Shown piece after piece: positions 59,914-61,554 of a stretch of DNA of 64,000 nt (position 1 is its first letter; every line of letters begins with the position of its first letter). The notes below the pieces were generated by a model, which was not told the origin of the DNA, did no database searches, and saw only the letters and a program-made list of their open reading frames with translations. The position numbers and the translations under genes were made by a program. Origin of the DNA: an uncultured Bacilli bacterium (GTDB taxonomy: Bacteria; Bacillota_I; Bacilli_A; RFN20; CAG-449); the NCBI GenBank assembly GCA_947626895.1, contig CANQTY010000001.1, forward strand, positions 2,477 to 66,476, in the 5' to 3' direction.

Positions 59914-59996
59914 AATCTTTCCTATAAAGATTTTAACGCATTTTTTAAATAAGATAAATAAGAAATCCTTTATTACATAAAATTAAGCTTATAAGC

Positions 59997-60473
59997 TTAA
60001 TATTTTGCTAACTTTGAAAGAATTAATTCTATATTTGGCTGAGTAGGTATAATTGTAATTTTCAGTTTAATAAGTTCTAAAATTCTTTTTGCTTTCTTTC
60101 CTATTTCTTCCATATCCCTTTCATCTGTAACCATAATGTGTTCATTAAGCCAGCAATATTCACTTTCTATAAAATTTTTAGTAATAGGAAATATTTCTTG
60201 AATTAAAAAGGCTCTTTTAACACCATGAACAAGTTTTGCAATATATAGACCATCATTATGTTTTCCTTGTTCTATTCTTTTTTTCATGACCTTTTCATAT
60301 TTATCCACATTACTAGATAAAGGAATCATCCAATATATTCCATTTTCTTCTTTATAACAATAATAATGAGGTTTTGTTCCATGTTGATTTCTTTTTAAAT
60401 ATGGATCATCCATCAAATCAAAAAATTCATCTTTTATAATATATACTCCATTGATTTTTACTTTCTCTATCAT
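59997..60473 (-). CDS. type III toxin-antitoxin toxin, ToxN/AbiQ-family endoribonuclease (locus 1)
   Basis: about 158 aa; start ATG 60471-60473 with AGGAGA RBS 6 nt upstream; motifs GIYWMIPLSS and KPHYY resemble ToxN/AbiQ (Y.APLTSPK, KRPY); preceded by repeat RNA + terminator. Confidence 0.6.
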   Translation of the reverse strand: MIEKVKINGVYIIKDEFFDLMDDPYLKRNQHGTKPHYYCYKEENGIYWMIPLSSNVDKYEKVMKKRIEQGKHNDGLYIAKLVHGVKRAFLIQEIFPITKNFIESEYCWLNEHIMVTDERDMEEIGKKAKRILELIKLKITIIPTQPNIELILSKLAKY

Positions 60474-60496
60474 CAAAATTCTCCTTTTAAACAAAA

Positions 60497-60629
60497 GTCC
60501 CCCGTATATACTTTAACGAAGGACATATAACTTTCGAGCCAGCCACTTAATGGTTCGCCTGCTGGCCAGCGAAATACTTAACATCCTAGCCATTTGATGG
60601 TTCGCATGCTAGTCAGCGAAAAACTTTCT
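60497..60629 (-). ncRNA. type III antitoxin RNA (ToxI-like), two 47-nt direct repeats plus terminator (locus 1)
   Basis: AGCCAYTTRATGGTTCGCMTGCTRGYCAGCGAAA repeated with 47-nt period (60541, 60588); promoter TTGACT(60664-60659)-17-TAGGAT(60641-60636) on minus strand; terminator 60497-60524 with GU-containing stem + TTTTGTT. Confidence 0.6.
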
Positions 60630-60740
60630 ATACATATCCTAACAAATCAATTTAGTTAAGTCAATATGCAGTTCATTATTTTTTTGTGCATTTAGTATGA
60701 AAATCAATCACATGCTATAGAAAAAAATAATATTCGAAGG

Positions 60741-61220
60741 TTATTGACGTACATTTAACTTTTCTAATATTGCTATCACATCTATTTGAGTAGGCATATA
60801 TCGAACACCATCTTTTAATAACTCCATAATAACCCTAGCCTTTTGTTCGATTTGCTCAACATCTATATCGTTAGTTAATTCTACAAGTTTCCCTTTAAAG
60901 GTATAAGGGCGATAAATGTATTGCTTAGTAATCGGAAACATATCTTGAATCAAAAAGGCACTTTCCTCGTTATCTTTTATCATTGCAATATGAAGAATAT
61001 CACATGGTTTTCCTTCTTCCTCTCTTTTTTGAATAATCCTTCGGTATTTTTCTACACGACTAGATAAAGGAATCATCCAATATATTCCATCTTCTTGATC
61101 CTGTAAGCAATAATAATGTGGCCTTTTACAATGCTTATTACTTTTTAAATATGGATCATTCATCAATTCGAAAAATTCATCTTTAATAAAATACATTCCT
61201 CCTTTTTTTAATTGTCTCAA
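60741..61220 (-). CDS. type III TA toxin, ToxN/AbiQ-family paralogue (locus 2)
   Basis: about 50% identical to the locus-1 toxin (FIKDEFFELMNDPYL..KRPHYY..GIYWMIPLSS); start either TTG 61220 or ATG 61196; GGAGGA RBS nearby. Confidence 0.55.
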   Translation of the reverse strand: MRQLKKGGMYFIKDEFFELMNDPYLKSNKHCKRPHYYCLQDQEDGIYWMIPLSSRVEKYRRIIQKREEEGKPCDILHIAMIKDNEESAFLIQDMFPITKQYIYRPYTFKGKLVELTNDIDVEQIEQKARVIMELLKDGVRYMPTQIDVIAILEKLNVRQ

Positions 61221-61250
61221 TTTTGTCTCATTTCTCCTTTTATGATAAAA

Positions 61251-61417
61251 CTCCCCGCAAATTCACTTTGCAGGGAGTTTCGTCTAGCAATTTATATTCC
61301 GCATGCTAGTAAGCGGAACTTTCGAGCCAGCCACTTAATGGTTCGCCTGCTGGGCAGCGAAATACTTAGCATCCCAGCCATTTGATTGTACGCGTGCTGG
61401 TCAGCGAAAAACTTTCT
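61251..61417 (-). ncRNA. type III antitoxin RNA, about 2.5 x 47-nt repeats plus terminator (locus 2)
   Basis: half repeat 61296-61321, full repeats from 61329 and 61376 nearly identical to locus 1; promoter TTGACA(61452-61447)-17-TAGTAT(61429-61424); terminator hairpin CTCCCTGCAAA-loop-TTTGCGGGGAG + TTTTAT (61251-61277). Confidence 0.6.
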
Positions 61418-61554
61418 ATACTTATACTAGCAAATCGCTTCAAGTATGTCAACAATAATTTATTTTTTTTATAAGGCAAAATTATACACCAATTTATTTA
61501 TCTTAATTAAAATTTAAACTTCAATAATTTAGGTCTTCAAAAATAATCGATTTT

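Follow-up and report, generated by a model that had tools for sequence, protein, structure and literature searches.

A tandem pair of CptIN toxin-antitoxin modules with near-identical antitoxin RNAs and diverged toxins in an uncultured Bacilli bacterium

In the 64,000-nucleotide (nt) stretch of an uncultured Bacilli bacterium analysed here (the window; contig CANQTY010000001.1), the region 59997-61452 of the minus strand holds two co-oriented, complete CptIN type III toxin-antitoxin modules side by side, each built in the order promoter, array of CptI pseudoknot RNA units, terminator hairpin and CptN toxin gene (Table 1). Locus 2, with the toxin gene tox2, is the upstream module, and locus 1, with tox1, begins 75 nt past the tox2 stop codon. 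The arrays of the two loci (units A and B) differ at 7 of 93 nt, while the toxins have only half of their residues in common. We consider it somewhat better than an even bet (about 0.55) that this contrast reflects an old tandem duplication after which the RNA was held by purifying selection and the proteins drifted, perhaps with some conversion of unit B, and that either array neutralises both toxins.

Two CptI arrays of one sequence class

The two loci can be aligned over a block with 110 identical nt among 120, which starts at the -10 element and stops 5 nt past unit B; homology ends abruptly at that point, and identity collapses on both sides of the block. Unit B differs between the loci at a single base (60566 vs 61354; CTGCTGGCCAGCG vs CTGCTGGGCAGCG) and unit A at 6 of 47 positions, in agreement with the earlier note on this DNA, which had reported one difference in one full repeat and a few in the other. 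Of the unit A differences, two compensate each other within stem S2 (CUAG/CUAG to CCAG/CUGG), one disrupts a pair in stem S1, two lie in the linker or loop and one lies in the 3' tail. Where the differences fall does not refute the reading in the earlier note: the one in unit B is at nt 14, which varies among units and is polymorphic between strains, and of those in unit A only the 3' tail change falls in a toxin-contacting part. The interval given in that note (60497-61417) does hold the repeat arrays; it omits the promoter of locus 2 and all of tox1.

CptI units fold as an H-type pseudoknot in which S1 pairs nt 7-11 with 22-26, S2 pairs nt 15-19 with 36-40, L1 is short and the L2 loop is A-rich (numbering as in Rao et al., 2015; the window units were compared with the 45-nt units of other loci, and units A and B of locus 2, unmatched by the unit regular expression, were entered by hand). 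Across 18 distinct units the S1 and S2 cells are paired in 96.7%, as against 23-42% when the partner columns are slid, and 6 of the 10 pairs are altered on both sides. A generic pseudoknot scan is permissive and was used solely for unit placement. All five window units have the A29 and U30 of loop L2 on which antitoxicity depends in Eubacterium rectale, where mutating them abolishes it (PMC4627078). The window units also keep the 5' AAGU, and a 3' GA ends units B and C; unit A ends in U.

A 27-nt degenerate pattern for the unit matches four times in the window and not once in 100 shuffles. Tandem Repeats Finder, run on the window, did not pick up the arrays, owing to the low likeness (about 74%) of their units, and Rfam gave chance-level matches only in the region and nothing at gathering score across the whole window. 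The arrays nevertheless have the form by which the CptIN family is recognised, namely tandem direct repeats of 40-48 nt in 1.9-3.4 copies on the same strand directly upstream of the toxin (PMC3401426, Table 2), with units of 47 and 46 nt in locus 1 and of 47, 46 and 42 nt in locus 2. The third unit of locus 2 had been described in the earlier note as an extra half repeat, and an extra unit it is; with 42 nt it is close to full length, and its stems S1 (UCCGC:GCGGA) and S2 (CUAGC:GCUAG) are both intact through compensatory changes. A stretch of 15 contiguous nt in unit C (ATGCGGAATATAAAT) is identical to units of two other loci (L009 and L011) whose toxins are the closest to tox2.

Units within an array also differ from each other in a regular way. 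In arrays of the type found in E. rectale (L009-L168, see below), units 1 and 2 consistently differ by one compensatory pair per stem in more than 100 loci (A10:U23 vs G10:C23 and G17:C38 vs A17:U38), and locus 1 shows a like contrast, with CUAGC/GCUAG in unit A and CCAGC/GCUGG in unit B. Adjacent units appear to be held orthogonal to each other, perhaps as a guard against mispairing between units or deletion.

Table 1. Positions of the parts of the two CptIN modules in the window, in the direction of transcription
Feature	Position	Strand	Remarks
Promoter, locus 2	61424..61452	-	TTGACA-17-TAGTAT, TG before the -10 (extended -10); 10/12 consensus matches; aligns with the locus 1 promoter
CptI unit A, locus 2, 47 nt	61368..61414	-	AAGUUUUUCGCUGACCAGCACGCGUACAAUCAAAUGGCUGGGAUGCU; 6 differences from unit A of locus 1
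CptI unit B, locus 2, 46 nt	61322..61367	-	AAGUAUUUCGCUGCCCAGCAGGCGAACCAUUAAGUGGCUGGCUCGA; one base (61354) off locus 1 unit B; same as locus 1 unit B of the sister strain
CptI unit C, locus 2, 42 nt, diverged	61280..61321	-	AAGUUCCGCUUACUAGCAUGCGGAAUAUAAAUUGCUAGACGA; L2 loop of E. rectale type; both tails shortened
Terminator hairpin, locus 2	61247..61281	-	Inverted repeat with 15-base-pair stem, then UUUUAUC; -24.7 kcal/mol, z -6.5
Four-codon upstream open reading frame	61217..61231	-	ATG AGA CAA AAT TGA; stop overlaps the alternative TTG start of tox2 (TTGA); putative function
tox2, CptN toxin	60741..61196	-	151 amino acids from ATG, 159 from in-frame TTG 61220; E. rectale-like; SSR, D81 and S85 kept
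Promoter, locus 1	60636..60664	-	TTGACT-17-TAGGAT, TG ahead of the -10
CptI unit A, locus 1, 47 nt	60580..60626	-	AAGUUUUUCGCUGACUAGCAUGCGAACCAUCAAAUGGCUAGGAUGUU
CptI unit B, locus 1, 46 nt	60534..60579	-	AAGUAUUUCGCUGGCCAGCAGGCGAACCAUUAAGUGGCUGGCUCGA; 60566 polymorphic between strains
Terminator, locus 1	60489..60524	-	Hairpin 60524-60497 (GUCCUUCG...CGGGGGAC), then UUUUGUUU; -12.2 kcal/mol, z -3.1; sequence resembles the E. rectale-type terminator
tox1, CptN toxin, fast-evolving	59997..60473	-	158 amino acids; SSN not SSR; D81H, S85R, R102S, I73G

Two diverged CptN toxins

Both toxins score above the cutoff of 90 bits for the CptIN equivalog NF047359 of NCBIfam (tox1 133.5, tox2 159.1) and match CptN of E. 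rectale (Protein Data Bank entry 4RMO, chain A) over their full length (E 8.2e-44 and 5.6e-52, respectively). Together with the covarying pseudoknot repeats, this bears out the assignment of both loci to the type III systems in the earlier note. The AlphaFold2 (AF2) model of tox1 has a predicted local distance difference test score (pLDDT) of 85.8, and its top structural match is 4RMO_A (template modelling score, TM, 0.87; root mean square deviation, rmsd, 2.3 Å), followed by MazF and YdcE; tox1 is thus predicted to have the CptN (Kid/MazF-like) fold, and the assignment of tox2 to CptN is made from its sequence. Neither toxin had a hit in Pfam or PADLOC. Membership in the TenpIN family was rejected, tox1 alone giving a match and this at 18.6 bits against a cutoff of 90, as was membership in the ToxIN family, for which there was no Pfam ToxN hit and an Rfam ToxI match of 18 bits, against 50, that falls outside the repeats, at 61467-61495.

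An alignment of the toxins gives 50% identity (73 of 147 residues, E 8e-51), about half as had been estimated, and not the more than 85% that a simple recent duplication had been taken to imply. By the Nei-Gojobori method the synonymous divergence (dS) between their genes is 1.04 and the nonsynonymous divergence (dN) 0.41, giving a dN/dS of about 0.4. With dS near 1.0 the duplication, or the common ancestry, of the two genes must be old, which disposes of the recent tandem duplication suggested at first. The divergence has been unequal. Measured against the majority residue of the E. rectale-class toxins, tox1 has 35 unique changes and tox2 13 (p = 0.0015), by which count the downstream toxin has evolved about three times faster than tox2. 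In that class 78 columns reach a conservation of 95% or more; tox1 deviates from 25 of them and tox2 from 16, with 10 departures common to both as against 5.1 expected by chance (p = 0.005).

The departures of tox1 include R30K and D91E, at residues invariant or nearly so in the family, and reach into the active-site region. CptN has a Ser-Ser-Arg (SSR) active-site triad and two adenine-specifying residues, D81 and S85 (PMC4627078). In tox1 all three of R53, D81 and S85 are replaced (R53N, D81H and S85R), as are R102 and I73 (R102S and I73G), and S51, S52 and Y104 are retained; tox2 has kept every one of the residues named here as replaced in tox1. It should be noted that position 53 is likewise Q, K or N in other CptN proteins. 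From these replacements the active site and the second RNA-binding interface (interface 2) of tox1 would appear to be remodelled. What tox1 and tox2 have in common is V129I, G131E, M132L and an aromatic residue at 106. In 4RMO, residues 129 and 132 line the pocket for nucleotide 6 of the RNA 5' tail, and Ile106 touches the end of the S2 duplex (PMC4627078); E131 occurs in 0 of 135 E. rectale-class loci and in 1 of 23 outgroup sequences. We infer that the departures shared by the two toxins are specificity determinants for their shared RNA class at interface 1.

Other strains and the CptIN family

The tandem arrangement is also present on metagenome contigs identical to the window (L006-L008) and in a sister strain (L001-L005), where two of the contigs, L001 and L003, reach upstream of locus 1 into the 3' part of tox2. 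The tox1 open reading frame (ORF) is intact in all eight metagenome contigs. Six single-nucleotide polymorphisms (SNPs) separate the sister strain from the window, all within 60260-60566. The one at 60566 turns unit B of locus 1 into the exact sequence of locus 2, so that both B units are identical in the sister strain; it is the only one of the six that moves towards the sequence of the other locus, and a long conversion tract as the source of the strain variants was rejected on that ground. The six SNPs span 306 nt (unit B, leader and 5' half of tox1), with none in about 850 nt of aligned flank, and three of the four coding ones alter the protein; such clustering could come from a patch imported by recombination or from local selection.

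A further 160 CptN loci (L009-L168) came from scans of representative genomes and metagenomes, and 135 of them had the whole toxin gene and upstream sequence sufficient for scoring. Nearly all 135 carry one RNA class, which we name the E. rectale type, and a single unit sequence is identical across 103 loci. Among pairs of E. rectale-type loci whose toxins are 60-70% identical, the RNA identity of the best unit is 0.82-1.00 (median 0.91). The extreme case is the pair L137 and L139, with toxins that are 68% identical, a saturated dS of 1.8 and unrelated flanks, and with 90-nt arrays that are 100% identical. The residues named for 4RMO as contacting the RNA or forming the active site hardly vary across the 135 toxins of the class, and this accounts for an RNA that remains fixed as the rest of the protein drifts. 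Slow RNA with drifting toxins is therefore the usual state of the CptIN family; it is the tandem pairing, and not the mechanism, that is unusual in the window. The selection on the RNA itself that had been offered as one alternative in the earlier note is in this way borne out family-wide. The premise that toxin and RNA must drift in step does not hold in general: in published cross-inhibition tests, which gave no cross-protection, selectivity was demonstrated for toxins 35-44% identical whose RNAs differ (PMC4627078), and not inside a single RNA class.

Set against all other loci, tox1 is 45-52% identical in amino acid sequence with an RNA unit identity of 0.60-0.70, and tox2 is 52-64% identical (59-64% to the E. 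rectale-type toxins) with an RNA unit identity of 0.65-0.77. Set against each other, the two toxins are 50% identical and their best RNA unit 0.98 (mean 0.89). On these sequence comparisons the RNA classes are discrete, and the class of tox1 and tox2 is theirs alone, distinct from the E. rectale type. Save for its own strain variant, tox1 has no relative above 53% identity.

Several further observations were made on the family. Two distant CptN relatives (L173 and L175; 36-37% identical to tox1) have other CptI classes on the same pseudoknot plan, with 48-49-nt units and stems UCCGC/GCGGG and CUCGA/UCGAG in L173 (440-540), and units with UUCGC/GCGAA and CAGG/CCUG in L175 (110-230); Rfam has no family for either class. 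Among L009-L168, toxins with N in place of D at residue 81 (4RMO numbering) go with arrays whose 45-nt units have a last base other than A in 7 of 11 cases, as against 15 of 107 (Fisher p = 6e-4, uncorrected for phylogeny); tox1 has H at this adenine-specifying residue, and unit A of the window has its terminal U. A CptN-like protein found in two independent samples (P0013; L171 and L172) combines an E. rectale-type array and an E. rectale-type N-terminus of about 50 amino acids with a very different C-terminal two thirds, and may be a recombinant toxin; the contigs are of low coverage, an assembly chimera being the alternative. Finally, many database entries for CptN (P0016-P0135) are 197-198 amino acids long rather than about 156, and gene callers may have extended these ORFs upstream into the terminator and the CptI array.

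Proposed mechanism and alternative explanations

By analogy with CptIN of E. rectale, we propose that in each module a sigma-70-type promoter would transcribe the short CptI array, and that the hairpin terminator would pass only part of the transcripts on to the toxin gene, giving an excess of RNA over toxin. The CptN endoribonuclease would cut the array at the unit junctions, between N and AAGU, and the freed pseudoknots of 42-47 nt would each help to bridge two toxin protomers in a 2:2 ring that blocks the active sites; both the processing of the arrays and the formation of the 2:2 complex at the window loci are expected from that analogy. Both modules, being of the same CptI class, most likely stem from an old tandem duplication. 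Since the duplication, very strong purifying selection would have kept the RNA near constant while the proteins drifted, tox1 the faster of the two, and local gene conversion may have helped unit B to stay identical. We take purifying selection to be the best explanation for most of the constancy of the RNA, and the precedent of the family shows that selection can by itself keep CptI identical even where toxin divergence is saturated. Since the two loci have in common their RNA class and part of RNA-binding interface 1, each array would be expected to neutralise both toxins, and cross-neutralisation of tox1 and tox2 is likely.

Three sets of data weigh against this proposal. Firstly, of the 14 residues that PMC4627078 names as contacting RNA or belonging to the active site, 7 differ between tox1 and tox2 (R53N, D81H and S85R included), and identical binding at interface 2 is therefore doubtful. 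Secondly, in a neighbour-joining tree the E. rectale-type clade takes in tox2 but leaves out tox1, and only 16 of 200 bootstraps make the two sisters; a site-by-site analysis traces the position of tox1 to changes that are largely its own, and the tree is thus weak evidence. Thirdly, the loci differ less in unit B (0-1 differences) than in unit A (six; one-sided binomial p of about 0.02-0.07, calculated by hand), which uniform constraint does not predict and gene conversion does.

This last point leads to what we regard as the strongest rival, although a rather doubtful one: concerted evolution, in which the likeness of the arrays is owed chiefly to repeated gene conversion, or to unequal recombination, between the adjacent loci. 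The complete identity of the B units in the sister strain fits this explanation, as does the sole difference in unit B of the window: 60566 varies between strains and, in the sister strain, carries the base of the other locus. The sharp end of homology 5 nt past unit B fits as well, and so does the finding that unit B is here the more alike of the two units, in contrast to the E. rectale class, in which the promoter-proximal unit is the more conserved. However, the six differences in unit A, a compensatory pair among them, speak against a recent tract over the whole array, and the other five strain SNPs are not directed towards the sequence of the other locus. Moreover, identity limited to the array is equally sharp between different genomes, where local conversion is impossible.

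The position of tox2 in the tree suggests another history, which we think improbable, in which the two loci are of independent origin: tox2 would derive from an E. rectale-type locus whose array was mostly lost, with unit C as its relic, and the promoter-proximal units A and B would have been taken from the tox1 locus, or the reverse. In keeping with this, tox2 is closer to the E. rectale-type toxins, among which it nests, than to tox1, the L2 loop of unit C is of E. rectale type, and unit C contains the stretch ATGCGGAATATAAAT in common with the loci of its closest toxin relatives. But faster change of tox1 at positions that are otherwise invariant accounts for its placement, unit C lies at a similar distance (about 70-77%) from window and E. 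rectale-type units, and tox1 and tox2 have in common the G131E that is so rare elsewhere. Furthermore, in locus 1 too the junction between unit and terminator and the terminator stem are E. rectale-like (AAGTTATATGTCCTTCG vs AAGTATAGTCCTTCG), so that all three lineages share the architecture of the locus.

Very unlikely, finally, is a decaying or catalytically altered tox1 that no longer needs a matched antitoxin, with its array kept, for example, as antitoxin dosage for tox2: it would suit the 25 departures of tox1 at conserved columns (R30K, R53N, D81H, S85R, D91E and R102S among them) and its forming a cluster by itself when 1.84 billion representative proteins are clustered at 50%, but is countered by the intact ORF in every contig, the dN/dS of tox1 and tox2, a fold predicted with confidence that matches 4RMO, the retained S51, S52 and Y104, the variation of position 53 in other CptN proteins, and the promoter, terminator and well-spaced ribosome-binding site (AAGGAG ahead of tox1) that locus 1 has of its own.

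Other features of the region

No second CptN beyond the pair and no further CptI array was found elsewhere in the 64-kb window. Both terminator hairpins went uncalled in a simple consensus terminator scan. There is no hairpin after tox2, so that transcription may read through from tox2 into locus 1. The start of tox2 is unusual in that a GGAGG ribosome-binding site lies just 1 nt ahead of the ATG at 61196, and on the minus strand GAGACAA is present twice in 61196-61240, 11 nt apart; this start region may serve translational coupling or damp the expression of tox2. Right behind the tox1 stop codon (59960-60000) lies a palindrome, TTAAGCTTATAAGCTTAA, followed by TTTTATG, which may be a weak terminator ahead of the gene for a membrane protein of 386 amino acids.

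Relation to known systems and significance

The CptIN family was defined by Blower et al. (2012; PMC3401426), and the structure of the E. rectale system was determined by Rao et al. (2015; PMC4627078). The window modules agree with E. rectale CptIN (4RMO; PMC4627078, PMC3401426) in the homology of the toxin, the chromosomal location and the order of promoter, tandem 40-48-nt repeats, terminator and toxin, as well as in the S1 and S2 positions of the H-type pseudoknot, the A-rich L2 with A29 and U30, the 5' AAGU and the GA at most 3' ends. They differ in that their RNA class is 60-77% identical to E. rectale-type units, with both stems changed by compensatory substitutions, that L2 is one nt longer and the A and B units are 46-47 nt rather than 45, and that U, not A, precedes the cut site at the junction of units A and B. 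They also form two tandem modules sharing an RNA class, of which one has a toxin that lacks R53, D81 and S85. More than one locus of one type III family per host is likewise known from E. rectale ATCC 33656 and Bryantella formatexigens, which have multiple cptIN loci (PMC3401426); the main text of that paper has neither "adjacent" nor "two loci", and uses "duplicat-" only for one locus in different strains. With ToxIN of Pectobacterium and Bacillus and with TenpIN the modules have in common a repetitive RNA antitoxin that is processed by, and inhibits, an endoribonuclease of the Kid/MazF fold. E. rectale CptIN stabilised plasmids and did not abort infection by the coliphages tested (PMC4627078). 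Phage and plasmid records gave no match to the window locus, and the unit B pattern is absent from viral contigs.

What is new here, as judged from the sequences compared, is threefold: a tandem arrangement of modules that share an RNA class, in that none of the 160 other loci has a second CptN within its stored flanks (1.5-2.5 kb); a previously unrecorded CptI sequence class, which lies outside Rfam coverage and is absent from the 160 comparison loci; and a fast-evolving toxin copy whose residues indicate an altered pocket for the scissile nucleotide. The central contrast between RNA and toxin is largely explained by a property of the whole family and not by a recent event.

Type III antitoxins are commonly portrayed as highly selective partners that co-evolve with their toxins. 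Our comparison suggests that the selectivity of CptIN is organised in discrete RNA classes and that the RNA of a class is preserved nucleotide for nucleotide even as the toxins diverge as far as 50-70% identity and reach synonymous saturation. With two diverged toxins, near-identical arrays, an odd third unit and one altered adenine pocket, the tandem pair provides a natural test case for the toxin residues that set RNA specificity and for cross-protection within a class, and the CptI class of the window is useful for annotation. More tentatively, and with the odds rather against it, the pair could be a system of one RNA class and two toxins, in which a single CptI class neutralises both diverged CptN proteins, the pocket of tox1 being remodelled by R53N, D81H and S85R. 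If so, tox1 and tox2 might form mixed 2:2 rings on shared RNAs and might split between them the processing of the junctions in which A or U precedes AAGU. CptI would then be a slow-evolving hub for the diversification of toxins, which would qualify the picture of tight co-evolution between toxin and antitoxin in type III systems.

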